Part shown: in pieces, positions 1 through 64,000 of the stretch
How the letters are laid out: each line of letters opens with the position of its first letter
How positions within the stretch are numbered: position 1 is the stretch's first letter
NCBI GenBank assembly: GCA_038150265.1
Contig: JAYOTF010000005.1
Span: forward strand, 1 to 64,000
Source: Deltaproteobacteria bacterium
GTDB lineage: Bacteria; SAR324; NAC60-12
Length of the DNA: 64,000 nt
Reading direction: 5' to 3'
Notes under the pieces: generated by a model
Told to the model about the DNA's origin: nothing
The model's input: only the letters and a program-made list of their open reading frames with translations
Database searches by the model: none
Position numbers and translations under genes: made by a program

Positions 1-257
1 TCAAGGGCGTGACCGCGTCCGGAATCGTCAAAAAGGGGCTTCCCTTCCTCTCCCGTACCGTCCGACCAAAACCGAGCGCTGAGGCCAGCAGCAAGCTCTG
101 CCACCCATTTGTTTCAGGCGATGGCCCTGGGGTTTCAACTTCCCCCTGCGGCAGAAAGGCGTATCCTGAAAGACGTGGTGTTTCCCGCTGCCACCACATG
201 GCTTGGGCACGTGGTGCCTGGACTGAGCCATGCCGGACCCTTCAACCAGAGAAGACC

Positions 258-644
258 ATGGAATACAGCTTCAATAAAATTGTGGAGATGTCCTTTGAGG
301 AGGCGATTGCACGGACCACCGAATCGCTTCAGGAGCAGGGCTTTGGGGTCCTGACGGATATTGATGTGCAGGCCACCCTGAAAAAGAAGATCAATGTGGA
401 GTTCCGCAACTACCGGATCCTCGGGGCGTGTAGTCCCACTCATGCCTACCAGGCGCTGCAGGCAGAGAGCCGAATTGGCACCATGCTGCCGTGCAACGTC
501 ATCGTCCAGGAAACAGAAGCCGGTCAGGTGGAGGTCTCAGCGATTGACCCGGTGGTTTCCATGCAGGCTGTCGGAAACGCGAGCCTGGGGGAAGTCGCGG
601 CTGAGGTGCAGCACCGCTTGAAGCAGGCGGTCGAGAACCTCTGA
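258..644 (+). CDS. DUF302 family protein
   Basis: MEYSFNKIVEMSFEEAIARTTESLQEQGFGVLTDIDVQATLKKK...YRILGAC...GTMLPCNVIV is the typical DUF302 pattern; ATG at 258 chosen over the upstream in-frame start. Confidence 0.9.
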   Translation: MEYSFNKIVEMSFEEAIARTTESLQEQGFGVLTDIDVQATLKKKINVEFRNYRILGACSPTHAYQALQAESRIGTMLPCNVIVQETEAGQVEVSAIDPVVSMQAVGNASLGEVAAEVQHRLKQAVENL

Positions 645-705
645 CGGCCTGCTTGTGGGGGGAGGCTCCGGTTTCAGGAGCCCGCGAGGCGTTCCGGAAG
701 GGACG

Positions 706-930
706 CTACAGCCAGCGGATCACGCCAATGATTCCGGCGGTGGCATAGAAAAACTGCAGGAGGAGGATGCCGTAGTGTCGGCAGAGGTACGCCCAGACGC
801 CAATGGCGAGGGCGGAAATGAACAGCAGGGTGAAGCCGAGGACTTCATTTCCCGTGTTGGAGGCCACGAGCATGGAGTAGGCGATGGCGGTCAGAACACC
901 AAACCATTCCAGGGACTTGTGAAGATTCAT
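706..930 (-). CDS. Small 3-TM membrane protein, SemiPnu/PnuC half-like (74 aa)
   Basis: C-terminal part of ORF 706..1860 from ATG 930: MNLHKSLEWFGVLTAIAYSMLV...LLLQFFYATAGIIGVIRWL, three hydrophobic segments; follows the TRAP permease in the same direction. Confidence 0.7.
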   Translation of the reverse strand: MNLHKSLEWFGVLTAIAYSMLVASNTGNEVLGFTLLFISALAIGVWAYLCRHYGILLLQFFYATAGIIGVIRWL

Positions 931-971
931 GAGTCGCGCCAAGCGTTTCCGAAGTGTAGGGCAAACCGTGA

Positions 972-2909
972 CTACTGGGCCGCGCGGCGGTTGAGGAAGA
1001 AGACCAGGGCGATGGCTGCCACCCCTGCTGCTTCTACCGGAATCTGGGGCCAGAAGATGGCGACAATGCCGGGCATCAGCAGCACACGCTGCCAGTGGGC
1101 AAGCGGAGCCCAGAGGAACCCCTCCAGCACCGCGGCAAAGGCAACCAGTGCCACAATGACAATGAAACCGTTCCACAGCACCAGCGGCAACGGACCACCC
1201 AGGATGATGGATTCGTTGTAGACCATGAAGAGCGGAATCAGGTAAAGCCCCTTGGCAAACTTCCAGGCCTGTACGCTGGTTTCCATGGGACTTGACCCGG
1301 CAATGGCGGCTCCGGCAAAGCCCGCCAGAGCAACAGGAGGCGTCACGTTGGAATCCTGGGAGTACCAGAAGACCACGAGGTGAGCAACGAGGAGCGGGAC
1401 CCCAAACTCGCTGGTCAGGGCAGGTCCCACCAGGATGATCAAGACGATGTACGCCGCAGTCACGGGCAACCCCATCCCGAGGATCAGGCTCGCCAGGATC
1501 ACCAGGAAGAGGGCCACAAAGAGATTGCCTCCGGAGAAGGCCATCATCATGGCTGAAAACTTCAGCCCGAGCCCCGTCAATCCCACCACGCCGACAATGA
1601 CCCCTGCCACCGCACAGGCGATGGAGACCGCGATGGCGTTCCGCGCTCCGAGTTCCAGAGCCTGACCCGTCAGCTCCAGCCCCCGCCTCAGCAGCTTCCA
1701 GAAGTTCGGCAGGGTCGGATTTTCTGAGAAAAAGTGCCAAAGCGCCCGCCCTGCGGCTGCCAGCATGACCGAGAGGATCGTGTAAAAGCCCACCCGCATC
1801 GGCGAGTACCCGCCCACCAGCAGCCAGGTGAGGAGCCCCAGCGGAATGAGGAAGTGCCACCCTTCGAGCATCACCGTCCGGAGCCGGGGCAGCTCTTCTT
1901 CCGTGAGGCCTTCCATGCCCTGCTTGACTGCAGCAATGTGCACCAGCAGGTACACGGCCCCGAAGTAGAGAAACGCGGGAAAGATGGAGACCAGGACGAT
2001 GTGGATGTAGGGCGTCTGGGTAAACTCACTCATCAGAAAGGCACCCGCCCCCATCAGCGGAGGCATGATCTGCCCTCCGGTAGAAGCCGCTGCCTCAATT
2101 CCTCCTGCTTGAGCAGGACGGTAGCCCAGGCGCTTCATCAGGGGGATGGTAAAGGCGCCGGTTGTGACCACGTTCGCAATGGCAGATCCGGAGATGGACC
2201 CCATGCCGGCTGAGGCGATGATGGCGGCCTTGGCGGGTCCGCCCCGCTGGCGTCCGGTGGTGGCATAGGCCAGGTCAATGAAGAACTTCCCGGCGCCCGT
2301 GACTTCCAGGAAGGCCCCGAAGAGGACAAAGACAAAGATGAAGGTGGAGGCCACCCCGAGCGGAATGCCGAAGATGCCCTCGGCGCCCAGGGTGAGCTGG
2401 TTGGCCAGACGATCCAGGGAGTACCCACGGTGATTGAGGATGCCGGGAAGCCAGTCTGCCAGCCACGGCAACTCCCCCTTGCGCCCTGCAAATCCGTAGG
2501 CAATGAAGGTGGCAGCGATCAGCGTCATGCTGAACCCAACGGCGCGTCGGGCGGCTTCCAGCACAAGGAGTGTGGTCAGCACCCCAACCGTGACATCAAT
2601 CTGCCGGGGGAAGATGGCGTTGGCAATCGTGTCAATGTTCAGCGGAACCCACACCCCAACCAGCCCCCCTCCGGCGACCAGGATGCCATCGAGCACCCAC
2701 TCGCCCCTCCGGCGAGGCCGAGACCCCGAAACCGGGTAGACCAGAAAGCAGAGGACCAGGATGAAGCCCAGGTGAATGGGGCGCTGAAAGAAGAGGCCCA
2801 GGGGCTGAATGCCGGCGGCGTAGAGCTGAAACAGCGAGAGGGCAATGCCGACGGAGGCCGTGAGTCGGGCGACGAACAGGGGGGTGGCGCGTTCGCTGGG
2901 GTCTGACAT
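972..2909 (-). CDS. TRAP transporter 4TM/12TM fused permease (TAXI type)
   Basis: GGPAKAAIIASAGMGSISGSAIANVVTTG, EAAASTGGQIMPPLMGAGAF, GMGLPVTAAY, TPPVALA motifs. Confidence 0.95.
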   Translation of the reverse strand: MSDPSERATPLFVARLTASVGIALSLFQLYAAGIQPLGLFFQRPIHLGFILVLCFLVYPVSGSRPRRRGEWVLDGILVAGGGLVGVWVPLNIDTIANAIFPRQIDVTVGVLTTLLVLEAARRAVGFSMTLIAATFIAYGFAGRKGELPWLADWLPGILNHRGYSLDRLANQLTLGAEGIFGIPLGVASTFIFVFVLFGAFLEVTGAGKFFIDLAYATTGRQRGGPAKAAIIASAGMGSISGSAIANVVTTGAFTIPLMKRLGYRPAQAGGIEAAASTGGQIMPPLMGAGAFLMSEFTQTPYIHIVLVSIFPAFLYFGAVYLLVHIAAVKQGMEGLTEEELPRLRTVMLEGWHFLIPLGLLTWLLVGGYSPMRVGFYTILSVMLAAAGRALWHFFSENPTLPNFWKLLRRGLELTGQALELGARNAIAVSIACAVAGVIVGVVGLTGLGLKFSAMMMAFSGGNLFVALFLVILASLILGMGLPVTAAYIVLIILVGPALTSEFGVPLLVAHLVVFWYSQDSNVTPPVALAGFAGAAIAGSSPMETSVQAWKFAKGLYLIPLFMVYNESIILGGPLPLVLWNGFIVIVALVAFAAVLEGFLWAPLAHWQRVLLMPGIVAIFWPQIPVEAAGVAAIALVFFLNRRAAQ

Positions 2910-2910
2910 G

Positions 2911-3384
2911 TCAGTCCTCTTCTGGCTCAAGGGAAATCCGGACTCGGGCACGTTCTGCCAAGGCGGTCAAGGACACCTCGCTGGTGGCGGTCCGGAGGCG
3001 ATGATTGACCCGTGGCCCGCCCGGACGCAGGATGTAGGCATTTCCGGGCACCGGCTCGTTGATGGCTTCAATCCAGTACCCTCCCTGGCCGTCGGAGACC
3101 TGCCGTCCCCGCCCCGGGATGTGGTCGAGGCCAGCAGCAAAGTCAGGCAGGTGGGAGCGGACCAGCACCAGGGCGCCGTCCTGATTTTCGTAACAGTCTT
3201 CCACCTCAAACCCCTGGACCGAGTGGTTCCAGAGGATGGACCAGCCCTCGCCATCAGCAACAGAAAACTGGGCCAGCAGCTGGTCCGACTCGGCAAGGCG
3301 GACCTGCAGGAGGGCCGCCTGAGTGACTGCAGTGGAGGTCAGAAAGAGGAGCGCCAGCAGCCCTCCTCGCTTCCACGTCTTCAA
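2911..3384 (-). CDS. DUF1850 family protein (TAXI-associated)
   Basis: WNHSVQGFEVEDCY and PDFAAGL motifs; sits between TAXI receptor and permease; TTG start overlaps the upstream TGA. Confidence 0.85.
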   Translation of the reverse strand: MKTWKRGGLLALLFLTSTAVTQAALLQVRLAESDQLLAQFSVADGEGWSILWNHSVQGFEVEDCYENQDGALVLVRSHLPDFAAGLDHIPGRGRQVSDGQGGYWIEAINEPVPGNAYILRPGGPRVNHRLRTATSEVSLTALAERARVRISLEPEED

Positions 3385-6353: not shown

Positions 6354-6363
6354 AGGAGGCCCC

Positions 6364-7854: not shown

Positions 7855-8043
7855 CCTCCACGGGGACGGTTCCACGTCCCCGGTCCCCACGCTCCCAGTC
7901 CCCATCAGCCCACCTCCGGTGCTCAAGCTACTTGACCCGGTCCCTGTGCTTCCCTTAAGCTTGATGAGCCCTTTCTGAAGAACGCTTGCCCGCTTTTGGT
8001 CTTCACCGAGGCCCCTGGTTCCCGGCGCTGCTCGGAACCGTTG

Positions 8044-8077: not shown

Positions 8078-8088
8078 AAACCTCGCTC

Positions 8089-9816: not shown

Positions 9817-9821
9817 ACCTC

Positions 9822-10007: not shown

Positions 10008-10048
10008 GAAGGGGAGTGACGCCTAATCAACCTGTAGAGAGGAGCCTG

Positions 10049-12681: not shown

Positions 12682-12945
12682 CGCCCTCTCCCGGAACACG
12701 AGGGAAGGGTTCCGGGAAAGGCGTTTGCCGGTTTTCCTAAAAATATTAAATTTATTTAATTTTTTCAGGCAGATCCTGGCTGGCTCCGTCCCCTGGGGAC
12801 GGATGGGTCAGTGGTTCCTGTTGTTGAGGAGAAGGAGCGTGTTCTCCAGGCAACCCGTTCCCTGCCAGAGGCGAGTGAGCCGAAGCAGGCGGTGCTGATC
12901 AAGAGATCACACCATGTTGAAGACCCTTTCTAGAGGAGCAATCGA

Positions 12946-14076: not shown

Positions 14077-14229
14077 CCGAGACCGGAGGTTTCTCAAATC
14101 GGGGAAGCCGCCCTCTGGCTTTCCCACCCTCTGATTCCCTTGATCCACCCGCTTGCTTGCCCCTGCTTCCAGCAGGGAGGAGCACCCCCAGCGGAGGAAA
14201 CCGATGACCGCCACAGGAGCCTGTCGCGT

Positions 14230-15126: not shown

Positions 15127-16082
15127 TGAACCACCTCAACCGTTGGGGCCTGCCGGCCTTCTTGCTGGTGCTGGCCATTTTGCCGAACCTGCTGAATTCG
15201 CGATGGCAGGCGATCGCCATTACCTTCCTGGTGTTTTCCGTGGTGGCGCTTTCGGAGGACATCGTGCTCGGCAAGGCCGGGATGTTCAACATGGGACACG
15301 CCCTGTTTTTTGGCATGGGCGCTTACACAACCGCGATCCTCAATGCCCACTACGGCTGGTCGATCCTGGCCACCATTCCCATGGCGGTGCTCCTGCCGGC
15401 GCTGTTTGGCATCCTCTTCGCCGGTCCGATTGTTCACCTGCGCGGCGACTACCTGCTGGTGGTGACCATTGGGATCAACATTGTGTTCATTCAGGTGCTG
15501 CAGAACAACCTGGGCGGTGTCACCGGAGGCCCGAACGGCATCTTCGGCCTCGACTCCCTCAGCCTGTTCGGGTGGCAACTCACCAGTCAGCTGGCGACGT
15601 ATTACTTTGCCTTTGCTGTGCTGCTGGTCACCTTGGCGATCATGCGGAACCTCGAAGGGAGCAAGGCCGGCCGAGCGCTTCACTACCTCAATCAGGATGC
15701 CCTGGCTTCAGAGAGCATTGGCATCAACACCCGGGTGTACCGGATCTTTGCGTTTGGCCTGGGAGCCGGGCTGGCGGGGCTGGCCGGAACGGTCTTTGCG
15801 ACCCAGTACTCAGCGGTCAGTCCGGAGGCCTTTGACTTCATGCAGTCGGTGCTGTTCTTCAGCATTGTGCTGGTGGGAGGCTCCTCCATTCCCGGCATCT
15901 TCCTGGGAGTGCTGGTGATGTTCATCCTTCCGGAGGTCTTCCGGGAGTTCTCCACCTGGCGTTACTTCGTTTTCGGGTTTGCCATGATCCTGGCCATGAT
16001 CCTGCGCCCTCGTGGCATCTGGCCGGCGACCTTTGGCAAGATCCCCTCGTTTCTGATCAAGGAGTCCCCGCATGGCACTTAA
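15126..16082 (+). CDS. livM: Amino acid ABC permease
   Basis: GHALFFGMGAY, LRGDYL, TGGPNG, RPRGI; TGATG overlap with livH. Confidence 0.92.
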   Translation: MNHLNRWGLPAFLLVLAILPNLLNSRWQAIAITFLVFSVVALSEDIVLGKAGMFNMGHALFFGMGAYTTAILNAHYGWSILATIPMAVLLPALFGILFAGPIVHLRGDYLLVVTIGINIVFIQVLQNNLGGVTGGPNGIFGLDSLSLFGWQLTSQLATYYFAFAVLLVTLAIMRNLEGSKAGRALHYLNQDALASESIGINTRVYRIFAFGLGAGLAGLAGTVFATQYSAVSPEAFDFMQSVLFFSIVLVGGSSIPGIFLGVLVMFILPEVFREFSTWRYFVFGFAMILAMILRPRGIWPATFGKIPSFLIKESPHGT

Positions 16083-18819: not shown

Positions 18820-19159
18820 ATGGCTGTGGGCGCCTGATTTCGTGAACCCTCTTTTCAAGAGAGTGCCCATGATCCTGGGCCACCGGTTCGTTCTTCTCAC
18901 GTTGCTGCATCAGGCGACCACGTGGGAATGAAGGAACCCTACCAGTCCGGTCGGGCTGGATCAACACCATGCGGGGGAACCGCAGTGGAGGAGCACCCCA
19001 GCTTCGGGGGGACGCTCCGTTCGTGAAGAGACAGGAGCCCTGTACCTGAGCCGTGCTCAGGTTCCGGAGGCGCCTGTGGACCGCGTCCTGCTGCTGGAAG
19101 AAGGCCCCAGACGACTTGCTGCCGAAGCCCCTGTGTTCCTCGGCCAAGCGCTGGCCTGA
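18820..19159 (+). pseudogene. Possible degraded peroxiredoxin-like/selenoprotein ORF
   Basis: AGGAG then ATG 18820 (MAVG), frameshift to APDF...VLLTLLHQATTWE, in-frame TGA 18929 followed by a hairpin, frame open to TGA 19159. Confidence 0.3.
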
Positions 19160-19284
19160 CTCCTCCCAAGCCTCTCGGTCCCCTTCTCCTCCCTGGACTC
19201 CTGTCTCTTGTGCTTCCTGCAGGAAGCCCGTGGCGTTTTGCGCCCGGACGTTCTGCATTCAATTGACTGATTTTCCAAAAGAGG

Positions 19285-20157
19285 ATGATGTTTCATTTCG
19301 TCAAGAAACTGATGGCTGGGCTGCTGCTGAGCGCCTGGAGTGCGAGCCTTGTGGGGGCCGCCCCCTTTACCTTCACGGCCATTCCCGACCAGGACACGGC
19401 TCGGCTTCAGGAACGCTTTGGCAAGGTGGCGACCTACCTGCAGGAGCAACTGGGCGTTGAGGTCCGCTACATCCCGGTGAAGTCCTACGATGCCTCGGTC
19501 TCGGCATTCAAGAACAACGAGGTTCAGCTGGCCTGGTTCGGAGGCCTCTCTGGGGTGCAGGCCCGGATGGCTGTGCCGGGCTCTCAGGCCATTGCGCTGG
19601 GTGAGGAAGACCTGGAGTTTGTCACGTTCTTCATCGCCAACACCCGCACTGGCCTGAGCGAAAGCGACACCCTTCCGGACGCCCTCAAGGGCCGGACCTT
19701 TACCTTTGGCTCCAAGGGCTCGACCTCCGGACGGCTGATGCCGGAGTTCTTTCTGCGAGAACGCTTTGGGCAGGCTCCGGAAGCGACCTTCCGGCGGGTG
19801 GGGTTCTCGGGCGATCACTCCCGGACCCTGCAGCTGGTGCAGGCCGGAAGCTATGAAGTCGGCGCCCTCAACTTCAAGGTTTGGGAAACCGAGCAGGCCG
19901 AAGGCAAGGTGGACGCCGAAAAGGTTCGCGTCATCTGGCGCACCCCCAGCTATCCGGACTACAACTGGAGCATTCGTGGCGATGTGAATGAAACCTGGGG
20001 CCCCGGCTTCCTGAAGAAGGTGCAGCAGGCGTTGGTGGACCTGAAGGATCCGGACATCCTTGGGGCGTTCCCGCGCCGAGGCTTCCGCCCGGCGACCAAC
20101 GACCTGTTTGCCCCGATCCTCCAAACGGCCCAGGACATCGGCATCATCCGGAAATGA
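19285..20157 (+). CDS. PhnD-family ABC substrate-binding protein, 'putative selenate' subfamily
   Basis: FTAIPDQD, LAWFGGLSGVQAR, FTFGSKGSTSGRLMP, GFSGDHSRT, TPSYPDYNW. Confidence 0.85.
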   Translation: MMFHFVKKLMAGLLLSAWSASLVGAAPFTFTAIPDQDTARLQERFGKVATYLQEQLGVEVRYIPVKSYDASVSAFKNNEVQLAWFGGLSGVQARMAVPGSQAIALGEEDLEFVTFFIANTRTGLSESDTLPDALKGRTFTFGSKGSTSGRLMPEFFLRERFGQAPEATFRRVGFSGDHSRTLQLVQAGSYEVGALNFKVWETEQAEGKVDAEKVRVIWRTPSYPDYNWSIRGDVNETWGPGFLKKVQQALVDLKDPDILGAFPRRGFRPATNDLFAPILQTAQDIGIIRK

Positions 20158-20834
20158 CCGAGTCGGTGGTGTTCCGGCTGCACCAGGAGTCCATCGGCTA
20201 CAACGGGCAGCCGGTTCTGTCAAACCTGTCCCTGACCATTGAGGCCGGGGAGCGGGTGGCGCTGATTGGACCCAGCGGAGCCGGGAAGTCGACGCTGCTC
20301 CGGACGCTGTATGAGCGGCTTCCGGACCAGTGTGCGCTGATGCACCAGCAGTATGCGCTGGTGCCACAACTTTCGGCTCTGCACAACGTCTACATGGGGC
20401 GCCTCGACCAGCACCCCACCTGGGAAAACCTGAGGACGCTGGTGTGGCCGTCGCAGCAGATCCGGGACGAGGTGGAGGCGGTCTTGAACCGAGTGGGCCT
20501 GCAGGGAATGGCTCGGCAACGCACTCGGGAGCTTTCCGGAGGGCAGCAGCAACGGGTGGCGCTGGGGCGAGCGCTCTACCGGAACAGCCCGGTGGTGTTG
20601 GCCGATGAGCCGGTGTCTTCCGTGGATCCGCACCAGGCGGATGCCCTGTTGCACCTGCTGGGATCGGCCAGCCCCACGCTGGTGATGGCCCTGCATTCCG
20701 TGGAGCTGGCCCAGCGTCATGCCACCCGGCTGGTGGGCTTGCGAGACGGACGGATTGTGCTGGATGCGGCTCCGGATCAGGTGCCGCCGGAGCGCTTTGC
20801 GGAACTGTATGCGCGCCCGGAGGCGCTGTGCTGA
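20154..20834 (+). CDS. PhnC-like ABC ATPase
   Basis: GPSGAGKST, LSGGQQQRVA, LADEPVSSVDP. Confidence 0.9.
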   Translation: MTESVVFRLHQESIGYNGQPVLSNLSLTIEAGERVALIGPSGAGKSTLLRTLYERLPDQCALMHQQYALVPQLSALHNVYMGRLDQHPTWENLRTLVWPSQQIRDEVEAVLNRVGLQGMARQRTRELSGGQQQRVALGRALYRNSPVVLADEPVSSVDPHQADALLHLLGSASPTLVMALHSVELAQRHATRLVGLRDGRIVLDAAPDQVPPERFAELYARPEALC

Positions 20835-29986: not shown

Positions 29987-31525
29987 ATGGCCCCTTCTTC
30001 CTCTCTGCCAGCGTCTTCCCGAACGGCCCTTCAGCGGGTGTTTCAGGGGCTGGTGGGGCTTGGCTTTGTGACCCTGCTCTATGTGGCGTGGCGGGTGTAC
30101 CTGGTGGGGCAGGCGCTCTTTGGGGCCTGTGTGCTGCTGGTCGCCCTGGGGTTCCTCTTCATTTTTGGGCTCCGGCGGTTTTACTTCGCACGCTTCATCT
30201 TCCCAGGCATCAGCACGATGCTGCTGTTTGTCCTCTTCCCCATCTTCTACACCATCTACCTCGGCTTCACCAACTACGGCTCCTTCAACCTTCTCAGCTT
30301 TGAACGGGTCACGGAGGTGCTGCTGAGCGCGAAGGCGGTTGACGCCACCACCGAGCGTCCGTTTGTGCTGGTCGCTGAGGGAACGCAGTATCGCGTGTTT
30401 CTTCCGGAAGAAACGGGTGGGGTGCTTTCCGCACCACTGGCGCTGGAAGGCGAGCCCGAGCAGGTGGCCGCTGAGCGGGTGGCTGAAGCCCCGGAAGGAA
30501 CGCTGAGCCTCAAGGAGGTGGTCCAGCGCCGCAATGCCCTGAATGCCCTCTCAGTCGTGCTTCCGGATGGGACGGAACTCAAAGCGACGGGGCTCCGGAA
30601 GTTTGCGGCGGTGCAGCCCGAGTATGAACTTCAGGAAGACGGCACCCTGCTCAGTCACACCGGGGCGGTGCTGACTCCGGACCCGACAACCGGCTTTTAC
30701 CGGACAGCCGACGGTGAGAAGGTCACCCCTGGTTGGCGGACCTTCATTGGGTGGGAGAACTTCGTCCGCATCTTTCTGTCTGAAGGCATCCGGGCCCCCA
30801 TGATTCAGATCTTCACCTGGACGCTCGTCTTTGCCACGGCGTCGGTGCTGCTGACGTTTGGGCTGGGGCTGTTGCTGGCGCTGGTCCTTCAGTGGCCCCA
30901 CCTGCGCTTCAAGACGGCCTACCGCATCCTCCTCATTTTGCCGTACGCGGTTCCGGCCTTCATCTCGATCCTGGTGTTCCGGGGGCTCTTTAACCAGAAT
31001 TTTGGCGAGATTAACCTGATCCTGGAGGCGCTGTTTCAGCTCCGCCCCTCGTGGTTTACGGATGAGACGCTGGCCCGGACGATGATCCTCATCGTCAACA
31101 CGTGGCTGGGTTATCCGTACATGATGCTGCTGGCGATGGGCTTCCTGCAGTCGATTCCACAGGATCATCAGAAGGCCGCAGCGCTGGAGGGGGCCGGGGT
31201 GTTCCGGGTCTTCTTCTCGATCACCCTGCCCCAGATCCTGCCGCCGTTCCTGCCGCTGCTGCTGGCATCTTTTGCCTTTAACTTCAACAACATCGTCTTG
31301 ATTCTACTCCTCACTCGGGGCCTTCCGGACATTCCCGGAACCGTCATTCCTGCAGGAGAAACCGACATCCTGGGCTCCTTCACCTACCGGATCGCCTTCA
31401 TGGACAGTGGCACGCAGTTTGGCCTGGCAGGAGCCATCACCCTGCTGATCTTCGTGGTGGTCTCGCTCCTGGCGTACGCCAACTTTGTGGCGATGCGTCG
31501 AGCCACGGCTGAGAGGCTCCCATGA
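29987..31525 (+). CDS. malF: Maltose ABC permease with large periplasmic loop
   Basis: FTNYGSFNLLSFER, ILPYAVPAFIS, NTWLGYPYMM, FAFNFNN. Confidence 0.92.
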   Translation: MAPSSSLPASSRTALQRVFQGLVGLGFVTLLYVAWRVYLVGQALFGACVLLVALGFLFIFGLRRFYFARFIFPGISTMLLFVLFPIFYTIYLGFTNYGSFNLLSFERVTEVLLSAKAVDATTERPFVLVAEGTQYRVFLPEETGGVLSAPLALEGEPEQVAAERVAEAPEGTLSLKEVVQRRNALNALSVVLPDGTELKATGLRKFAAVQPEYELQEDGTLLSHTGAVLTPDPTTGFYRTADGEKVTPGWRTFIGWENFVRIFLSEGIRAPMIQIFTWTLVFATASVLLTFGLGLLLALVLQWPHLRFKTAYRILLILPYAVPAFISILVFRGLFNQNFGEINLILEALFQLRPSWFTDETLARTMILIVNTWLGYPYMMLLAMGFLQSIPQDHQKAAALEGAGVFRVFFSITLPQILPPFLPLLLASFAFNFNNIVLILLLTRGLPDIPGTVIPAGETDILGSFTYRIAFMDSGTQFGLAGAITLLIFVVVSLLAYANFVAMRRATAERLP

Positions 31526-32424: not shown

Positions 32425-34233
<1,809 letters not shown>

Positions 34234-34284
34234 CAGCTTCCGTGCGTTTGCGTCCAAGGGGGGAAATCAAATGAAGTGGCTAGA

Positions 34285-38419: not shown

Positions 38420-39844
38420 ATGAGTGCTGTTCCGCTGCAAAAAGAAGTTGATGTGGCCATCATTGGGGCCGGAAGTGCGGGCCTGCCCGCGTACCGAGCC
38501 GCCCGAGCCTACACGGACCGCGTCGTGATGATTGAAGGTGGCCCTTACGGAACGACCTGTGCGCGGGTGGGGTGCATGCCGAGCAAGCTCTTGATTGCCG
38601 CCTCGGAAGCCGTTCACGAGATCGAACGAGCCCACGGATTCGGAGTGCATGCGCCGGCTCCGGAAGTCAATGGGGTGGAGGTGATGGACCGCGTCCGGCG
38701 CGAGCGGGACCGCTTTGTGGGGTTTGTGGTGGAGAGCGTTGAGAACATCCCGGCAGAGCACCACATCCGTGGGTATGCCCGCTTTCTGGATCCGCACACC
38801 CTCCAGGTGGATGACCACACCCGCATTCAGGCCAAGCGCATCATCATTGCCACCGGGTCCTCGCCCAACGTCCTCCCGCTCTTTGAAGGCGCTGGTGATC
38901 GCCTGATCGTCAACGATGATGTCTTCAACTGGGAGCAACTGCCCCAGTCGGTGGCCGTGTTTGGTCCCGGAGTGATCGGTCTGGAGATTGGGCAGGCGCT
39001 GCATCGCCTCGGGGTGAAGATCCGGATGCTCGGCGTCGGCGGCTTCCTGGGGCCGCTGAGCGATCCGGACCTCAAGGACTACGCGACGCGCTTGTTTCAG
39101 TCGGAGTTTCCGCTGGATCCGGACGCGACCATCCTCGGGATGGAGCGCACGGAAGGCGGCGTCCGGGTGCGGTTTGTTGACTCACAAACCGGCACGGAGC
39201 AGACGGAAGAGTTTGAGTACGTCCTGGCTGCCACCGGACGGAAGCCCAACGTGAAGGGGCTGGCGCTGGAAAACTCCGGGCTGGAGCTCGACCCGCGCGG
39301 GGTGCCGGTGTTCAACCCGCAGACGATGCAGTGCGGAGACAGCCACATCTTCATTGCCGGTGACGTCAACCACTCCCTGCCGCTGCTGCACGAAGCGGCC
39401 GATGAGGGCAAGATCGCAGGCACCAACGCGGGACGCTTCCCGGATGTGCAGAAGGGGCTTCGGCGTTCCCAGCTCAGTGTGGTCTTCTGCGATCCGCAGA
39501 TCGCCATTGTGGGCAACTCTTGGCAAGAGCTGGGTGGAGCGAATTTTGTGGTGGGAAAGGTGTCGTTTGAGAACCAGGGCCGCAGCCGCGTGATGCTCCG
39601 CAACCGCGGGCTCCTGCACGTCTATGCGGATGCCACCTCCGGACGCTTCCTGGGAGCAGAAATCTTTGGGCCGCAGGCCGAGCACCTGGGGCACCTGCTG
39701 GCGTGGGCGCATCAGCAGCAAATGACGGTGGCGCAGATGCTGGAAATGCCGTTTTATCACCCGGTCATTGAAGAAGGCCTGCGGACGGCCCTCCGGGAGG
39801 CCCAGGCTCAGGTCCGGGTGGCAGAAACGCGTCAGGCGGCATGA
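38420..39844 (+). CDS. Dihydrolipoamide dehydrogenase-like pyridine nucleotide-disulfide oxidoreductase (oxyR-linked type)
   Basis: GAGSAG, TTCARVGCMPSK, GPGVIGLE, FYHPVIEEG. Confidence 0.9.
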   Translation: MSAVPLQKEVDVAIIGAGSAGLPAYRAARAYTDRVVMIEGGPYGTTCARVGCMPSKLLIAASEAVHEIERAHGFGVHAPAPEVNGVEVMDRVRRERDRFVGFVVESVENIPAEHHIRGYARFLDPHTLQVDDHTRIQAKRIIIATGSSPNVLPLFEGAGDRLIVNDDVFNWEQLPQSVAVFGPGVIGLEIGQALHRLGVKIRMLGVGGFLGPLSDPDLKDYATRLFQSEFPLDPDATILGMERTEGGVRVRFVDSQTGTEQTEEFEYVLAATGRKPNVKGLALENSGLELDPRGVPVFNPQTMQCGDSHIFIAGDVNHSLPLLHEAADEGKIAGTNAGRFPDVQKGLRRSQLSVVFCDPQIAIVGNSWQELGGANFVVGKVSFENQGRSRVMLRNRGLLHVYADATSGRFLGAEIFGPQAEHLGHLLAWAHQQQMTVAQMLEMPFYHPVIEEGLRTALREAQAQVRVAETRQAA

Positions 39845-45984: not shown

Positions 45985-45986
45985 GG

Positions 45987-46997
45987 TTACTGCGCCATGG
46001 TACGAGACCAGGCCTTGAGCCAGCGCTCGTTGTTGGCCTCAATGCGTTCCGGGTTGAGGGAGAGCGACTTGGCGGGAACCGGAGCCACGCGGTAGGAGGC
46101 TGGAAGGTCCTGTTCCGGAGCCACCGGGAACATCCAGTTGGTGAGCGGGAGGGCATCCTGGAACGCCGACGTCAGCATGAAATCGATGAATTCCCGGGCC
46201 CGGTCCGGATGAGGCGCCCCCTTGAGGATGCCGGCCAGCTCCACCTGCCGGTACATGCCCTCGGGAAACTCCACCGCCTGGTAACGCTCGGTTTCTTCAA
46301 ACTCAACGTGGTAGGCCGGGCTGGTGACGTAGCTCAGCACAATGGGCGCCTCGCCTTTGGTGAACATGCCATACGCGGCAGACCAGCCGTCAGTGATGGT
46401 GAGGAGGTTCGGGCGCAGGCGGTTCCAGTAGTCGAGGTAGCCCTCTTCGCCATAGACCGCGAGGGTCCAGTGCAGCATCGACAGCCCGGGGGAGGACGTC
46501 TTGGGGCTCTCAATGACCACCTTGCCCCGGAAGCGTGGGTCGGTGAGGTCTTCCAGGGTCCGGGGCGGCTCCTGAAGCGTTTCCGAGTCATAGACAAAGG
46601 CGATGTAGCCATAGTCGAAGGGCGTGACCCGGTGTTCCGGATCCAGCTGCAAGGCTTCCGGAACCCGATCCAGGTGCGGAGACCGGTACGGCTCCCAGAG
46701 GTCGTAGCGGAAGGACTTGGCCAACTCGCTGTCGTTGACGCCGAGGAGGACATCGGCCCGGGGGTTGTTTTTCTCCAGAATGACTCGGCTCAGCACCGAC
46801 CCGGAGTCTCCGGGGGCAATGACCTGAACGGAGCACCCGCACTGCGCTTCAAAGGCCTTGAAGACCACCGGACCCGGACCCCACTCGGTGTTGAAGGAGT
46901 CGTAGGTATAGACCACCAGGTCCTGGGCTTGAGCCGAAAAGGCGGCGAGGGACAAAAAGACGCTGGCGCACCAGCGCAGCAGAGGACGTTTCAACAT
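45987..46997 (-). CDS. thiB: Thiamine ABC substrate-binding protein
   Basis: VYTYDSFNTEWGPGP, PFDYGYIAFVYD, TSSPG, GWSAAYGMF, LSYVTSPAYH, TNWMFP. Confidence 0.95.
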   Translation of the reverse strand: MLKRPLLRWCASVFLSLAAFSAQAQDLVVYTYDSFNTEWGPGPVVFKAFEAQCGCSVQVIAPGDSGSVLSRVILEKNNPRADVLLGVNDSELAKSFRYDLWEPYRSPHLDRVPEALQLDPEHRVTPFDYGYIAFVYDSETLQEPPRTLEDLTDPRFRGKVVIESPKTSSPGLSMLHWTLAVYGEEGYLDYWNRLRPNLLTITDGWSAAYGMFTKGEAPIVLSYVTSPAYHVEFEETERYQAVEFPEGMYRQVELAGILKGAPHPDRAREFIDFMLTSAFQDALPLTNWMFPVAPEQDLPASYRVAPVPAKSLSLNPERIEANNERWLKAWSRTMAQ

Positions 46998-53830: not shown

Positions 53831-54394
53831 CTAGCTCCGAGGCACCGGAGCCACCGCTTCCATGGGCAACCCGGCTGCTTCCCAGGCCTCAATTCCGTCC
53901 TTGAACCAGGCGATGTGCGAGTAGCCCATTTCGGAGACACGCTTGACGGCGTTCCAGGACATCCAGCAATTTGCTGTGCAGTAGAACACAATCCGGACCT
54001 CCGGATCAACAGCTGTTTGCGTCCTCATGAAATCCGAAAGGTAATTGAGCCACTCGGGGAGCAAGTCGCCGTGTCCAACGTTGGGAAGCCAGTAGCTGCC
54101 CGCAATGGCACGGTGGGGCTCGTCCCAGATGAAGCGCCCACTTCGGAACAGGGTGGGCTGAACGTCCACCAGCACCAGCGGCTTCCCGTCCTGCCGCATG
54201 GCTTCCAGTTCCGCGACATGAACGGTCGCACCGCCTTCCGCCGCTTCTGGGGTCGGAAAGCTGTAGTGCATGATCCGGTAGCCATCGATGGTGAAGTATT
54301 CGTCTTCCCAATCATCCGAGGCTCCGGTATCCTGCGACCAAGCCGTGCTGCTCAGCAGCACTACTCCTAAAACTCCCACCACGAACCGCCTCAT
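53831..54394 (-). CDS. PQQ-catabolism-associated CXXCW rhodanese-domain protein
   Basis: GSYWLPNVG, FYCTANCWMSWNAVKR, GYSHIAWF.DG; signal peptide MRRFVVG. Confidence 0.9.
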   Translation of the reverse strand: MRRFVVGVLGVVLLSSTAWSQDTGASDDWEDEYFTIDGYRIMHYSFPTPEAAEGGATVHVAELEAMRQDGKPLVLVDVQPTLFRSGRFIWDEPHRAIAGSYWLPNVGHGDLLPEWLNYLSDFMRTQTAVDPEVRIVFYCTANCWMSWNAVKRVSEMGYSHIAWFKDGIEAWEAAGLPMEAVAPVPRS

Positions 54395-55931: not shown

Positions 55932-56352
55932 CGTCTTCCTCGTCAAATTTGGATTTCTCTTCGTTCAGGACGCCGGCTTCAATGACGGCCTCGGCAATTC
56001 CTGCCTGGGCAACAATGCCGTCCCACGGCATGCCTGCGCGCCACTCGCCCTCATACATCGCCATGTCGGCACTGGCTTCCAGGCAGAGGCCTGAGGCAAT
56101 TTCGGGATCGACCTCTTCCACCTCATCGGCTTCGACCGCCGCACAGATTTCCAGGCTTCCATAAAAGTACCCCACGCCCTGGCCGTGAGGGACCCCGTCC
56201 TGGTCCTCTCCTTCGTACTCGGCCAGGTAGGCGTCCGGAAGCTCGGGTGTCCAGGTGAGGTCTTCGGTCAGGTAGAGTGAGTTGGCCAAGGTGGCTCCCG
56301 GCAGCAAACAGGTGCCCAGAAGCCCGATCAACAGAGAAGCAGTCGGTCTCAT
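55924..56352 (-). CDS. Acidic exported protein with MORN-like motifs
   Basis: Signal peptide; YEGEDQDGVPHGQG and YEGEWRAGMPWDG; overlaps both neighbours. Confidence 0.75.
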   Translation of the reverse strand: MRPTASLLIGLLGTCLLPGATLANSLYLTEDLTWTPELPDAYLAEYEGEDQDGVPHGQGVGYFYGSLEICAAVEADEVEEVDPEIASGLCLEASADMAMYEGEWRAGMPWDGIVAQAGIAEAVIEAGVLNEEKSKFDEEDDD

Positions 56353-57527
56353 TGAAAGGCAGTACATTGGGATTCAGGTTGATCAAAGCCCAGGGTATCC
56401 AGCTCCGTTTTCGGGTGCAAAAACCCCTGTTGCGGAGACGTGGAAACGAGGGCACGTGGATGAACCAGCGGGATGGTCTGACGCAACTGGCCGTTCCAGG
56501 ACCGGAAGTTCAGGCTCAGCCCCTTGAAGCCGGCAATCTTGAGCTGATCGCCAAGGAGGTACGTCCGGAGCGTTGTCGGGTCGGCGGCCTTGGTGCGAGT
56601 GACCGCCTCGCCGATGGCCCGCATCGCCACCCAGGCGGCATAATCCCGGGCCCGCATGTCACGGTCGGCGAGGCGCTGAAAGCGTTCCTGCAGCTGCACG
56701 GCGCCCCACTGCTCCACCACGCGGTCCCAGGTGGTGGCCACGAGTCCCTGAGTTCCCGCGACTGGGCGGGGGTCTCGGGTGTGGTAGGGCAGGTATTCGC
56801 CAAAGTCTCCGATTTCATCGGCCACGACGAGGATGTCGTACTCCTCTGGAATTTGCGTGAACAGGGGGAATTCCTGCTGCGCCAGCCGGCGCATGTCCGA
56901 GTCGAAGGTCCATTGCTTCTCGGCAACAATCTTGATGCCATACCGCTTGGCTGTCCGCTTGAGGGACGCGACGTAGAGCCGGTCGCCCGGCTTGTTTCCG
57001 GAGATGAGGAACCAGCGCTTCCACTTCATGGCAAGCAGGTACTGCCCGAGCGCATCAGTGAGCATGGCGCGGCTGGGCAGGGTGTGCAGCAGGTTGGCCT
57101 GGCACTGTTCCTCGCGGAGGGCATTTTCCGGGGCTCCCGCATTGAAAAGCAGCACATCGGAGCCGGTGGCCAATTCGGCTGCGCGTTGGGTTTCTGCCGC
57201 CGGTGCATTGAGAACCAGGTACTGGGTTCCGGAGGCAAGGACCTCCTGAACCGCAGCCTCCCAGTCTCCGCCAGTGGGAACCACGACTTCCTGCAACGTG
57301 TAGCTTTGTCCGAGAAAGCGTCCGGAGGCGAGGTTGTCCTGAATGCCAAGCCGAGCCCCCTGGAGGCCGAGGTCTTCTGGAACTTCATCCAGGTTGGAAA
57401 GCACCGGGGGGCGTTCCACTTGTTGCTCCAGGTACGTGACTGCGACCTCGAGTTTGGAGTTCGATTGCCCCCAGCCGGGAGCGGCGAGAACCATCAGAGC
57501 AGTGATCAGGAGGAGACGGAGCTTCAT
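56349..57527 (-). CDS. ABC substrate-binding protein of the PQQ alcohol dehydrogenase system (LutA-like)
   Basis: GARLGIQDN, HTLPSRAMLTDAL, ADEIGDFG, EQWGAVQLQERF, FKG..LNFRSWNGQLRQ, LDTLGFD. Confidence 0.9.
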   Translation of the reverse strand: MKLRLLLITALMVLAAPGWGQSNSKLEVAVTYLEQQVERPPVLSNLDEVPEDLGLQGARLGIQDNLASGRFLGQSYTLQEVVVPTGGDWEAAVQEVLASGTQYLVLNAPAAETQRAAELATGSDVLLFNAGAPENALREEQCQANLLHTLPSRAMLTDALGQYLLAMKWKRWFLISGNKPGDRLYVASLKRTAKRYGIKIVAEKQWTFDSDMRRLAQQEFPLFTQIPEEYDILVVADEIGDFGEYLPYHTRDPRPVAGTQGLVATTWDRVVEQWGAVQLQERFQRLADRDMRARDYAAWVAMRAIGEAVTRTKAADPTTLRTYLLGDQLKIAGFKGLSLNFRSWNGQLRQTIPLVHPRALVSTSPQQGFLHPKTELDTLGFDQPESQCTAFQ

Positions 57528-58465
57528 TGCGGCGTCTGGATCAGAGAAAAGGTTTGGGCTTCGTATTTGGGATAAAGGTGAACCACGGAGCGTGCCAGCT
57601 CTTCCCGGAAGAGGGCAATGCTTTCAAACTCCTTGGGTGTGGGAGTTTGCATGACCTCGTTCATGTTCCGTCCCTTCATGCTGGCCCGCGCAAAGACCTC
57701 ATGAAGCCACTGCAGGTGCTTCTGCGTCTGCTGGATGGGGCGGGTATCGGTGGCCGTTTCGCCATGTCCGGGCACCAGGAGGGTGAAGGGGAGCTGTTCC
57801 AACTCCTTGAGCGATTCCAGCCAGGCCGCAATCTGCGCATGCGGGGTCGCCAGGGCCCGGTTGTGGAAGACAATGTCTCCGGCAAACAGCACACCGGTGG
57901 TTTCATCAAAGATCGCCAGGTCGGCGCTCGTGTGGCCATGCAGGGCGATCAGGCGCAGGCGGTGCCCGCCAAACTCAACAGTCCCCGGAGCAAGCGTGTG
58001 TTGGGGAAGCCGCACATCGGTTCCCTGCATCGGGGCGCCGACGAGGCGGTAGAGGTTGTCCAGAAAGCCGGGGCCCTGCGTCTTGAGGCCCTCAATGGTC
58101 TTCGGAAGCGCATGGAGCTGATCGGCGTCAAAGGCCTGGTTGCCAAAGGCATGATCCGGGTGGTGGTGGGTGATCCAGACCTGCCAGATGGGCTGATCCG
58201 TCACCGTGGCAATGGCCTCCCGGAGCGCCTCGCCATAGAGCTTCGAGGGGCCGGAGTCGATCACGAGCACCCCCTCCGGAGTGGTCACGAAGGAGATGTT
58301 GACAATGTTGCCGTGATTCTCCCGAGCGAGCCCCTCCTTTTTGCCAAACAGCACATACGTGTCCGGCGCCACCTGCTGGGGCTTGAGGTCGTAGAAGGAC
58401 TTGCTCCAGCCAGGACTTGGCAGGAACAGCAGGCTGATCAGGCAGAGGCGGAGCAGCGGCATCAT
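57524..58465 (-). CDS. Quinoprotein relay zinc metallohydrolase (MBL fold, SoxH-like)
   Basis: IDSGPSKLYG, THHHPDHAFGN, GHTSADL, AGD, PGHG. Confidence 0.88.
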   Translation of the reverse strand: MMPLLRLCLISLLFLPSPGWSKSFYDLKPQQVAPDTYVLFGKKEGLARENHGNIVNISFVTTPEGVLVIDSGPSKLYGEALREAIATVTDQPIWQVWITHHHPDHAFGNQAFDADQLHALPKTIEGLKTQGPGFLDNLYRLVGAPMQGTDVRLPQHTLAPGTVEFGGHRLRLIALHGHTSADLAIFDETTGVLFAGDIVFHNRALATPHAQIAAWLESLKELEQLPFTLLVPGHGETATDTRPIQQTQKHLQWLHEVFARASMKGRNMNEVMQTPTPKEFESIALFREELARSVVHLYPKYEAQTFSLIQTPQ

Positions 58466-59984: not shown

Positions 59985-59996
59985 CTGCCCTCACTT

Positions 59997-61717: not shown

Positions 61718-61725
61718 CGTTCTCC

Positions 61726-62670: not shown

Positions 62671-63079
62671 GGACCGTATCCAGCCAGCTGCGGATCGCCC
62701 ACATGGCTTCTTGGCTAAAGACCTCTTCAAAGGCCGGCATGTAGGTCATCCCGTTGCGGATGACCCCGTTGCGGATGCGCATCAGGAACCACTCGTCGCC
62801 TTCCATCCCCACCGGCAGCATGCGCAGGTCGGGGGCAATGCCGCCCGAGATGGCCTCAAGGCCGTGGCAGCGGGCGCAGTTTTGGTTGTAGGCCGAGGCG
62901 CCAATTTCAATGGCCCGCTCGTTTCCGCGGTAGGGGTTTTCATCCAGCCACTCGTCACCCAAAGGCTCCAGGCCACTGGTGTCGACCAACTGCGGAGTGA
63001 CATCGCCATGGGAGAAAGCTGAGCCCGTCCATCCGACGAGGCCAATGAAGAGAGCAAATGCGCTAACAATGAGTCTCAT
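62660..63079 (-). CDS. pedF: Cytochrome c550 (PedF/ExaB)
   Basis: HGDVTPQ.VDT, ENPYR, YNQNCARCHGLEAISGGIAPDLR, YMPAF. Confidence 0.93.
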   Translation of the reverse strand: MRLIVSAFALFIGLVGWTGSAFSHGDVTPQLVDTSGLEPLGDEWLDENPYRGNERAIEIGASAYNQNCARCHGLEAISGGIAPDLRMLPVGMEGDEWFLMRIRNGVIRNGMTYMPAFEEVFSQEAMWAIRSWLDTVHVE

Positions 63080-63204
63080 GATCCATCCAAAAATTGGGGG
63101 TTTGGAGTCTGGCAACGTGGAGGAGGCGGAGGCGGGACCGGTCATGAGCTTCCGCGTCTCCATGCTGACGAAGGTTCCGGTGTCTGGGAAGAAAACCAGG
63201 GAAT

Positions 63205-63230
63205 GAAAGGGAGGAGCCGAAGCTCCTCCC
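63205..63230 (-). terminator. Stem-loop after the PQQ dehydrogenase gene
   Basis: Minus strand GGGAGGAGC-TTCG-GCTCCTCCC followed by only TTTC; leaky terminator or mRNA stabiliser. Confidence 0.7.
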
Positions 63231-63236
63231 GGGAAC

Positions 63237-64000
63237 TCAGTTGCTGCCGAGTTGCAGCGTGTCCTTCTGGTTGTTGTAGGTGCTCAGCTTCGGAAGCTTG
63301 AAGGTCCAGACCATGCCACCCTGGTTGAGGTAGTTGACGGTCTTGGCGACTTCACCGCCCCACAGCGGAACGGCTCCGCCCCATCCGGACACGACGGTGA
63401 CGTACTGCTCACCGTCCATGCGCCAGGTGACGGGGGATCCGACGATTCCGGAACCGGTCTGGAACTTCCAGAGGGTCTCACCGGTCTCATCATCAACCGC
63501 CATGAATTGGCCTTCCGGAGTTCCGTAGAACACCAGTCCTCCACCCGTGGTCAGCACGCCACCCCACAGCGGAGCGTTGTTGCGCTTTTCCCACTTGATG
63601 TCACCCGTGCGGGGATCGATCGCCTTGAGGGCGCCGATGTAGTCCTCATGCAGCGGCTTGATGGTGAAGCCGGCTCCGAGGTAAGCCGCACCTTTTTTGT
63701 AGGTGACGGGCTCGTTCCAGAGGTCCATCGCCCAGGAGTTGGACGGCACGTAGAAGTTGCCGGTGCGCTGGCTGTAGGCCATCGGCATCCAGTTCTTTCC
63801 ACCGAGGAAGGACGGGTAGACCACGATCGGCTCACCCTTGTCCTGGCCGGCCGGATTTCCGGGGCGCAGCTGGTTCGGAAGCGGACGGCAGTTTTCGTCC
63901 AGTCCCTCGGTCCAGTTCACTTCCACAAACGGAAGGGCGCGGATGCACTTGCCGTTCTCACGGTTGAGGACGTAGAAGTGTCCGTTTCGGTCGGCCTTGG
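63237..64000 (-). CDS. pedH: PQQ-dependent alcohol dehydrogenase, PedH/ExaF-like (C-terminal part; 5' end outside the window)
   Basis: [74 protein letters not shown]. Confidence 0.85.

Follow-up and report, generated by a model that had tools for sequence, protein, structure and literature searches.

The hexamer TCCGGA is a highly iterated palindrome (HIP) in the SAR324-lineage genome to which the DNA analysed here belongs, a stretch of 64,000 nucleotides (the window; positions 1-64000 of contig C5). It is strongly enriched in genes and in the spacers between them, the cause of the enrichment acts on DNA and not on proteins or translation, and neighbouring copies are spaced by whole turns of the double helix. 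Strong enrichment is limited to a clade of four genera, in which it appears to have arisen once. As the best explanation, unproven and held tentatively, we consider a protein that would read TCCGGA at several sites on one helical face. The source genome (G000) comprises 3.39 Mb in 87 contigs, the longest of 214 kb, with 61.2% G+C and a completeness of 97.8%. The best named matches of a protein encoded in the window belong to Candidatus Lambdaproteobacteria (64%) and to a SAR324 cluster bacterium (60%).

Abundance of TCCGGA in the window and in the genome

In the window, 168 copies of TCCGGA were counted (2.6 per kb), versus 23.66 expected from 100 dinucleotide-preserving shuffles (standard deviation 4.95, largest value 36). 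TCCGGA is the top hexamer of the window, at 7.9 times the expectation from base composition, and is spread across 54 called genes of both strands (24 plus, 30 minus) and their spacers. Within called genes 152 sites are located, with 43, 37 and 72 in the three reading frames. The remaining 16 lie outside, where some may fall in open reading frames (ORFs) missed by our gene model, a quick build of our own with 2,617 genes and 87% coding sequence on which all labels of the type "intergenic" depend. The first-pass annotation of the window had reported about 48 copies in the first 20 kb; the recount gives 47, all ten coordinates listed there (18, 693, 1530, 2991, 9121, 9281, 11071, 11501, 13661, and 15821) were found among the sites, and its expectation of about 7 per 20 kb agrees with the mean of the dinucleotide shuffles. 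Its description of sites in all three frames, on both strands and in intergenic DNA likewise applies, as does that of variable flanks, in which position -1 shows no more than a weak preference for T and position +6 one for A (32% in either case).

Genome-wide, TCCGGA occurs 9,711 times, i.e., once per 349 bp, and is the most over-represented of all hexamers (8.67 times the base-composition expectation; the runner-up palindrome, CTGCAG, reaches 3.15 times). Among the sixteen NCCGGN words, two-strand counts amount to 19,422 for TCCGGA versus 8,006 for the next word (CCCGGA with its complement TCCGGG), and the other palindromes of this type, ACCGGT, CCCGGG, and GCCGGC, are under-represented (0.66-0.68). 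The ratio of observed to expected counts (O/E) climbs with word length up to six letters, from 1.36 for CCGG and 3.11 for TCCGG to 8.67 for TCCGGA. Past six letters little is gained: 8-mers show an order-6 O/E of 1.04-1.16 with a mild preference for TTCCGGAA, and flanking positions carry no more than 0.09 bit each. Due to this lack of extended flanking similarity among the copies, a dispersed element of the repetitive extragenic palindrome or miniature inverted-repeat transposable element type was rejected.

The cause of the enrichment acts on DNA

Shuffling of synonymous codons within each gene (20 replicates genome-wide, 200 in the window) leaves 2,088±47 copies of TCCGGA in the coding sequence of the genome, whereas 8,686 are observed (4.2-fold); for the coding sequence of the window the corresponding values are 35.8±5.7 and 150. 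All three frames contribute, with enrichments of 3.8-, 3.3-, and 5.1-fold and observed counts of 2053, 2371, and 4262. Permutation of whole codons within genes (20 replicates) gives 1,261 copies. Because the gene model is rough, the non-coding enrichment was re-measured in short spacers only, defined as the 884 gaps that separate neighbouring called genes by 20-150 bp. They contain 132 copies versus 15.7 expected (8.4-fold), and seven palindromes of the same composition occur there 6 to 23 times. The codon pair TCC-GGA is used 2,053 times, 4.17 times the product of its codon frequencies, and most other Ser-Gly pairs remain below 1. Given the encoded proteins, TCCGGA would be permitted at 21,118 positions genome-wide, 8,686 (41%) of which are occupied. 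The earlier statement that one codon pair does not explain the enrichment thus holds, in view of all three frames under synonymous shuffling and of the spacers, and an explanation by codon pairs or proteins was rejected on the grounds of the synonymous shuffles, the spacers and the null of permissive positions described below.

The dipeptides that TCCGGA can encode are enriched themselves (Ser-Gly 1.41, Pro-Glu 1.65, and Pro-Asp 1.35). The reversed dipeptides reach 1.04 (Gly-Ser), 0.82 (Glu-Pro), and 1.27 (Asp-Pro), the last being enriched too, which weakens the comparison for Pro-Asp. Due to this peptide enrichment, the pressure towards TCCGGA has probably altered some amino acids as well, and not synonymous sites alone.

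With Markov models of order 0, 1, 2, 3, and 4, the genome-wide O/E of TCCGGA is 8.67, 7.57, 3.95, 2.39, and 1.22, respectively. The order-4 model had been put forward as a check of the enrichment, and the ratio indeed drops to 1.22, but this null contains the signal that it is meant to test because its expectation derives from how often TCCGG and CCGGA occur, and 54% of these occurrences sit within TCCGGA. The codon-aware nulls keep the enrichment.

Helical phasing of neighbouring copies

In the whole genome, the spectrum of the distances between TCCGGA copies peaks sharply at 10.45-10.5 bp, with a power of 1,763 versus a maximum of 174 in 30 position nulls that keep gene and codon frame. The period is 10.51±0.03 bp (95% interval 10.46-10.57; 300 contig bootstraps), and the preferred distances lie near 10.5n-0.9 bp; up to 200 bp, the relative amplitude amounts to 0.22. 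This amplitude declines from 0.34 (8-100 bp) to 0.15 (100-200 bp) and 0.08 (200-400 bp), and nothing remains beyond 400 bp, a decay that would fit torsional freedom erasing the information on the helical face with distance. Among the 956 hexamers that occur 1,500 times or more, TCCGGA has by far the highest phasing score (power divided by background median), 91 versus 22 for the next one. A 10.5-bp wave in base composition around the sites was not observed genome-wide.

The 21,118 permissive positions lack the period (relative amplitude 0.02), whereas the 8,686 occupied ones show a power of 1,104 versus 91±34 (maximum 186) in 50 random occupancies of the permissive positions. Thus the phasing lies in the choice of the occupied sites and not in the proteins, and a periodicity of alpha-helices or heptads was rejected as its source. 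Phasing is also present in the 1,778 pairs located in different genes or spacers (peak 37.7 versus a background maximum of 17.8) and where one or both members of a pair are intergenic (48.6 versus 10.1); if both are (695 pairs), it is weak (11.6 versus 7.7). In the window, 45 pairs lie within 120 bp, 22 of them in phase and 13 out of phase, which is too few for a test.

The phasing recurs in relatives. In G062, a genome of another genus (g19), the period is 10.45 bp with a power of 71 versus a background maximum of 21 for distances up to 120 bp, and 10.35 bp (44 versus 20) up to 300 bp. It is weaker in G002 of the own genus (19.6 versus a background of 11.3). Subsamples of 390 kb from the source genome (40 draws) have a mean power of 33 and exceed the background in 85% of cases.

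Occurrence in relatives and single origin

In the phylum, 88 genomes were scored by the ratio of TCCGGA to AGGCCT, the reversed word of the same composition, a control that can mislead. The following ratios were obtained.

Genus g1 (own genus of the source genome): 3.9-5.9
Genus g11 (18 genomes): 3.9-32 in 15 genomes; 1.6 in three genomes of 51-57% completeness
Genus g19: 14-30
Genus g4: 3-8.4
Genus g6: about 4.6
Genus g3: 3.8
Genus g10: 2.6
g2 (9 genomes), g5, g8, g9, and most of family f2: about 1

Direct k-mer counts, made on samples of the relatives (89-773 kb of DNA, or 20 kb each), give enrichments of 7.4-fold in G002 (g1), 7.7-fold in G062 (g19, 56% G+C; 1,785 copies in 773 kb, with other CCGG palindromes at 0.17-0.29), and 10.4-fold in G040 (g11, 42% G+C; 149 versus 14.3). 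Direct k-mer analysis of the orthologous 20-kb rpoB regions of 22 genomes confirms specific enrichment. Two readings of the ratio table were withdrawn. A specific avoidance of TCCGGA in G087 and G017 is not supported, as many palindromes are avoided there and not TCCGGA in particular, and the ratio of 36 in G066 reflects a rare control word together with a general excess of CCGG words. Since the table misleads in these three cases, the ratios of 2.4-8 in family f7, derived from the AGGCCT ratio alone, were not counted as proof of specific enrichment.

As for the palindromes of G087 and G017, CACGTG, CCCGGG, CTCGAG, GACGTC, GTATAC, GTCGAC, and TCCGGA each occur 0 times versus about 16 expected in 65 kb of G087 (C1:1-65014), and in G017 (C2:1-100000) many 6-bp palindromes are likewise avoided to an extreme degree. 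Both lineages may thus be under heavy restriction pressure.

A neighbour-joining tree of RpoB and RpoC (2,728 columns, 22 genomes, 100 bootstraps, rooted on G017; a quick build of our own) unites g1, g19, g11, and g4 in one clade with 100% bootstrap support, sister to the non-enriched g2 (100%). The more weakly enriched g6 and g3 form a separate pair (100%). As strong enrichment is confined to this clade and absent from its sister genus, the tree places a single origin of strong enrichment after the split from g2. The proposal of a lineage-specific genome signature is in good agreement with this distribution. Within the clade, the trait has been kept across a divergence down to about 72-75% RpoB identity and a G+C content from 41 to 62%.

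In rpoB and rpoC, 18-38% of the permissive positions are occupied in nine genomes of the clade (20 of 62 in the source genome). Outside, occupancy is 5 of 49 and 1 of 50 in g2, 13 of 56 in g6, and 8 of 57 in g3. Twelve of the 20 rpoB and rpoC sites of the source genome are also permitted by the protein of the non-enriched G003, which uses a single one of these 12. Which permissive positions of both genes are occupied differs between genera. Due to this sharp boundary between a four-genus clade and its sister genus, a full comparison of gene content could find the factor responsible.

Turnover of individual sites

The source genome and G002 were aligned over 383.7 kb in 16 collinear blocks (81.9% identity). 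Both genomes permit the word at 1,973 shared positions; occupancy is common to both at 458 of these, restricted to the source genome at 365 and to G002 at 226, and lacking at 924. The probability of occupancy in G002 is therefore 0.56 for positions occupied in the source genome versus 0.20 for the others, with a third-position identity of 0.54. With a retention of 0.50, TCC-GGA ranks 12th among 126 comparable codon pairs. Density and phase are maintained statistically and not site by site; a similar maintenance, statistical and not copy-wise, has been described for HIP1 (Xu et al. 2018, PMC5861425).

The most common replacement of TCCGGA between both genomes affects the first or last letter, yielding TCCGGG (62 cases) or CCCGGA (41 cases). 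Among nine classes of one-off variants, CCCGGA/TCCGGG is the only one phased with TCCGGA (768 versus a background maximum of 216). Being both phased and the most common evolutionary replacement, these words may mark decayed or nascent TCCGGA sites.

Distribution along the window and the chromosome

The copies in the window, together with examples of closely spaced and non-coding ones, are the following; the word is palindromic and no strand is given.

1..64000: whole window, 168 TCCGGA (shuffles, gene model, synonymous shuffling)
53992..54005: two copies 8 bp apart (53992, 54000), outside called genes (site list and gene model)
46636..46662: pair 21 bp apart, i.e., two helical turns (site list)
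20299..20326: pair 22 bp apart (site list)
30562..30599: pair 32 bp apart, i.e., three turns (site list)
19674..19781: three copies with spacings of 52 and 50 bp, about five turns each (site list)
39021..39123: three copies with spacings of 43 and 54 bp (site list)
15821..15934: two copies outside called genes (15821, 15929), non-coding examples (site list)

Across the genome the spread is near Poisson, with a mean of 14.5 copies, a variance of 16.5, and a minimum of 3 in 1,231 windows of 5 kb. Near start codons, density falls to 1.2-1.6 per kb versus about 2.6. The poorest windows harbour a chemotaxis operon, the ATP synthase operon, permeases of ABC transporters, and large secreted proteins; another poor region consists of 17 small genes on contig C2, a putative ribosomal-protein cluster assigned from position alone. 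Foreign islands devoid of TCCGGA were rejected, as the low-density windows are core operons and not mobile DNA. The contig with a retron-type reverse transcriptase has an ordinary density of 2.99 per kb. In 380 kb compared with the collinear G002, a single segment of at least 500 bp is restricted to the source genome, too few to test genome-specific DNA for the lack of the word that marks uptake sequences in genes without homologues in relatives.

A proposed reader protein as the best explanation

It is tempting to speculate that TCCGGA is the recognition word of a sequence-specific DNA-binding factor, probably dimeric since the word is palindromic, which would have arisen or changed its specificity at the base of one clade of the SAR324 lineage. 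Such a factor would act on double-stranded DNA along the whole chromosome and would profit when two or more of its sites on one side of the helix are touched together, be it through cooperativity, bridging, or the formation of short loops. TCCGGA would be held at about 40% of the tolerated positions and in the spacers by collective selection as weak as that on codon usage, which would also favour whole-turn spacings for copies within about 200-300 bp of each other. The binding itself might serve compaction, segregation, or the marking of own DNA. A factor that touches at least two copies on one face would lead one to expect phasing of the kind observed, fading with distance, limited to one word, and found again in another genus. 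The one-turn spacing that decays over about 300 bp is a physical signature that points to multi-site contact with double-stranded DNA. A chromosome-organising protein had already been suggested for the window; the 10.5-bp phasing lends this suggestion indirect support, but no such protein was found.

A wider claim, to which we give a little less credence than to the reader protein as such, is that the chromosomes of the clade bear a code written in their sequence. Its reader, a protein acquired or altered in specificity along the clade's stem, would recognise TCCGGA on one face at about 10,000 places, and synonymous sites, spacers, and some amino acids would have been rewritten to supply and phase the word. 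If true, bacteria would have their own equivalent of positioning codes, spelled with one specific word.

Several observations weigh against a reader protein. None was found among the few candidates tested: the clade and g2 alike have one copy of ParB and three HU/IHF genes, and no histone fold was found in the source genome. Small basic proteins with a high codon adaptation index proved to be ribosomal proteins and one HU, at index values of 0.65-0.80 and a codon bias too weak for this approach. Dense arrays or special loci are lacking (the largest cluster has 5 copies per 200 bp versus 6.4 at random). The conservation of the copies is just moderately high, with 45.9% of 1,108 copies conserved in G002 versus 33.6% for all hexamers (rank 133 of 1,035). 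Retention of codon pairs follows their share in general (r=0.75), and sites with an in-phase neighbour are conserved no better than those with an out-of-phase one (0.43 versus 0.43; n=233 and 145; Fisher p=1). Taken together, these three features of the turnover are fitted equally well by a directional drive without site-wise selection. Finally, DNA looping within E. coli cells shows a period of about 11 bp and 10.5 bp is the period of relaxed DNA, so that the observed value better fits torsionally relaxed DNA. For nucleases of the CCGG family (Bse634I, NgoMIV), the search of the source genome gave no match, but its controls were silent as well, so that this negative says little.

Biased DNA uptake as a possible rival

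A serious rival, although an unlikely one in our view, is a drive like that of DNA uptake sequences, in which biased uptake and recombination of DNA from relatives would spread the word without benefit to the cell, as has been proposed for such sequences, and the phasing would reflect a receptor that holds free relaxed DNA by two copies on one side. The period of 10.51 bp would suit such DNA. Further agreement comes from the even spread without clusters (mean 14.5 and variance 16.5 per 5 kb), the enriched dipeptides (Ser-Gly 1.41, Pro-Glu 1.65, Pro-Asp 1.35), the lower density in highly constrained operons (ATP synthase, putative ribosomal-protein cluster), and the turnover at maintained density without site-wise selection; spread, peptides, tolerance, and turnover match the traits described by Findlay and Redfield (2009, PMC2817400). 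ComEC and secretins are present, but ComEC occurs in all 35 high-quality genomes of the phylum (35/35) and does not separate enriched from non-enriched ones, secretins number two in both the clade and g2, and no full-length match to PilM was found in the clade. A 6-bp palindrome moreover provides little specificity, known uptake sequences being asymmetric words of 9-12 bp. To our knowledge, phasing of pairs has not been described for uptake signal sequences (USS) or DNA uptake sequences (DUS).

Methyltransferases and repair enzymes

Less probable still is a methylation-linked HIP, in which an orphan N4-cytosine or N6-adenine methyltransferase would modify TCCGGA, and a process reading the modification, such as repair, replication control, or sequestration of paired sites, would favour the gain of sites. 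Readers of the SeqA type prefer paired sites on one helical face. In cyanobacteria, a HIP of high frequency goes together with a methyltransferase for that sequence (Elhai 2015, PMC4390886), and the replacements at the first and last letter observed here (TCCGGG 62, CCCGGA 41) resemble the edge-biased deviations of the same study.

The source genome has two genes for amino-methyltransferases with an SPPY motif, located on contigs C51 and C45 and candidates for a modification of TCCGGA. For the C51 gene, full-length matches were found in the non-enriched G003, G006, G010, G013, and G014 and in the palindrome-poor G017; most genomes of the order have a full-length relative, but none was found in the enriched G011. 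The C45 gene, situated beside a retron-type reverse transcriptase, is present in just G000 and G001. Since their distribution does not track the enrichment, both were rejected as drivers, though a modification of TCCGGA by an amino-methyltransferase may still occur. C5-methyltransferase, Vsr, and MutH gave no match in the source genome (97.8% complete) in searches with working controls, nor did the N6_Mtase and Eco57I-type families, with controls likewise working; for MT-A70 there was no match in the source genome either, but the control was silent too. In a search of 32 genomes of the family, a full-length C5-methyltransferase was found in 1 of the 18 genomes of the clade, whereas the non-enriched G058 has several.

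A test for depletion of one-off variants had been proposed, TCTGGA and TTCGGA being named. None of the variants that deamination and repair of the Vsr type would be expected to remove is depleted: relative to base composition, TCTGGA reaches 2.57, TCAGGA 2.95, and TTCGGA 1.34. With deamination-type neighbours not depleted, amino-methyltransferases that do not follow the pattern of enrichment, and no C5-methyltransferase, Vsr, or MutH in the source genome, the mechanism offered for the window, a methyltransferase together with biased repair, finds no support.

Both methyltransferase loci have features of their own. The locus C45:1404-5096 comprises three plus-strand ORFs (35-1444, 1441-2217, and 2224-3159 in locus coordinates). 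The reverse transcriptase matches the NCBIfam retron St85 family with 200 bits, under the cut-off of 235 bits; it overlaps the N6_N4 DNA methyltransferase with the SPPY motif by four bases, and an ORF of 311 residues without known family follows. This locus may be a retron with a methylase-type partner. The methyltransferase-like gene at C51:1-1387 has motif I (FMGGG) ahead of SPPY and an N-terminal repeat rich in Arg, Asp, and Glu that is cut by the contig end; a TerB-like gene follows. Its open frames extend over 732 residues in G002 and 664 in G001, and either DNA or RNA may be its substrate.

DNA mechanics and mutation bias as improbable explanations

Two further explanations appear improbable to about the same degree. 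In the first, phased TCCGGA would be an element of bending or flexibility that folds or supercoils an A-tract-poor chromosome without a dedicated reader. Phasing of exactly one helical turn, the even genome-wide spread, and the independence of G+C content (42-61%) agree with this, but TCCGGA is the sole phased word, no composition wave accompanies it, CCGG palindromes with similar steps are under-represented (0.66-0.68 in G000 and 0.17-0.29 in G062), and the lack of enrichment in the sister genus g2 is left unexplained. In the second, a context-dependent bias of mutation or repair would act without function or reader, as the high turnover, the retention proportional to frequency, and the absence of extra conservation of phased pairs would allow; a bias in 6-bp context by itself, however, gives no 10.5-bp phasing across tens to hundreds of bp, and the searches for C5-methyltransferase, Vsr, and MutH yielded no candidate enzyme.

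Other features of the window and the genome

On the minus strand of the window, a paralog of the type IIA topoisomerase B subunit with GyrB, Toprim, and HATPase domains is encoded at 32425-34257. It scores far under the NCBIfam cut-offs for gyrB/parE (410 versus 882 bits), adjoins the gene of an Obg GTPase (34629-35690), and has no adjacent A-subunit gene. Four ORFs encoding 373-630 residues have no Pfam match (E ≤ 0.001):

12907-14346, minus strand
19057-20949, minus strand
35694-36815, minus strand
56277-57575, plus strand

Except for 35694-36815, these were also covered by an NCBIfam scan, without match (E ≤ 1e-5). In case of 56277-57575, an ORF of similar length (56349-57527) overlaps on the opposite strand, and either strand may be the coding one.

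Elsewhere in the genome, the rpoB match at C6:71382-75341 (minus strand), a single frame of 1,369 residues, falls into two parts (model positions 2-652 and 734-1238); judged by this alignment, the middle of RpoB appears to be divergent or to contain an insertion relative to the family model. The whole genome is extremely poor in CTAG (0.05 of expectation) and in TA-rich tetramers (TATA 0.07), and the codons CTA, TTA, and ATA each account for about 1% of the usage for their own amino acid.

Comparison with known systems

In full-text literature searches on TCCGGA over-representation, on helical periodicity of palindromes, and on palindromes in SAR324 (supplements not covered), the present signature did not turn up. 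Elhai 2015 (PMC4390886), in its abstract and the passages covered, deals with cyanobacteria alone and leaves TCCGGA unmentioned.

Uptake sequences of the USS and DUS type share with TCCGGA the thousands of evenly spread copies, the peptide enrichment, the location at tolerant positions, and the character of a whole-genome process (Findlay and Redfield 2009, PMC2817400). In contrast to them, TCCGGA has a 6-bp palindrome as its core, and uptake machinery does not separate enriched from non-enriched lineages.

Gbn of Streptomyces, a nucleoid protein that recognises GATCWT at thousands of sites (PMC9239103), and Pseudomonas ParB on half-parS words (PMC5961200) exemplify proteins whose words of about 6-7 bp are read thousands of times along a chromosome, Gbn providing a precedent for a reader of a 6-bp word. 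In these cases the protein is known and, in the abstract of the former and the listing of the latter paper, neither hyper-enrichment nor phasing of the word is reported; in the present case it is the word that is known and not the protein.

SeqA, which binds paired GATC, and two-site restriction enzymes (type IIE/IIF) of the CCGG family depend on a short palindrome being present twice on one helical face, with a spacing dependence of about 10.5 bp. Unlike in these systems, neither a Dam-type system nor SeqA nor a CCGG-family nuclease was found here (the Bse634I and NgoMIV controls being silent), and unlike the target of a restriction-modification system, TCCGGA is enriched and not avoided.

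The closest likeness is to HIP1 (GCGATCGC) and the alternate HIPs of cyanobacteria, which are G+C-rich palindromes far above expectation, present in genes and spacers and limited to lineages. In both cases there is evidence that abundance and distribution are maintained and not individual copies (PMC4390886, PMC5861425). TCCGGA differs in having six letters instead of eight, in an enrichment of 8.7-fold versus 15- to 300-fold for HIP1 (PMC5861425), in a host outside the cyanobacteria for which no cognate methyltransferase was found, and in a period of one helical turn (10.5 bp) versus 18-94 kb (Xu et al. 2018, PMC5861425), although periods of the latter length are beyond the reach of contigs of at most 214 kb.

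The usual suspects, i.e., C5-methylase, Vsr, and MutH, are absent from the source genome. Together with the sharp clade boundary and the one-turn spacing, this renders the question of HIPs more accessible. That a requirement at the level of DNA can claim about 40% of the synonymous choices open to suitable codon pairs is of relevance to models of codon usage, to gene prediction, and to the binning of such metagenome-derived genomes. Highly iterated palindromes have been an unsolved puzzle of cyanobacteria for decades, and TCCGGA adds a second, independent case from an uncultured phylum.

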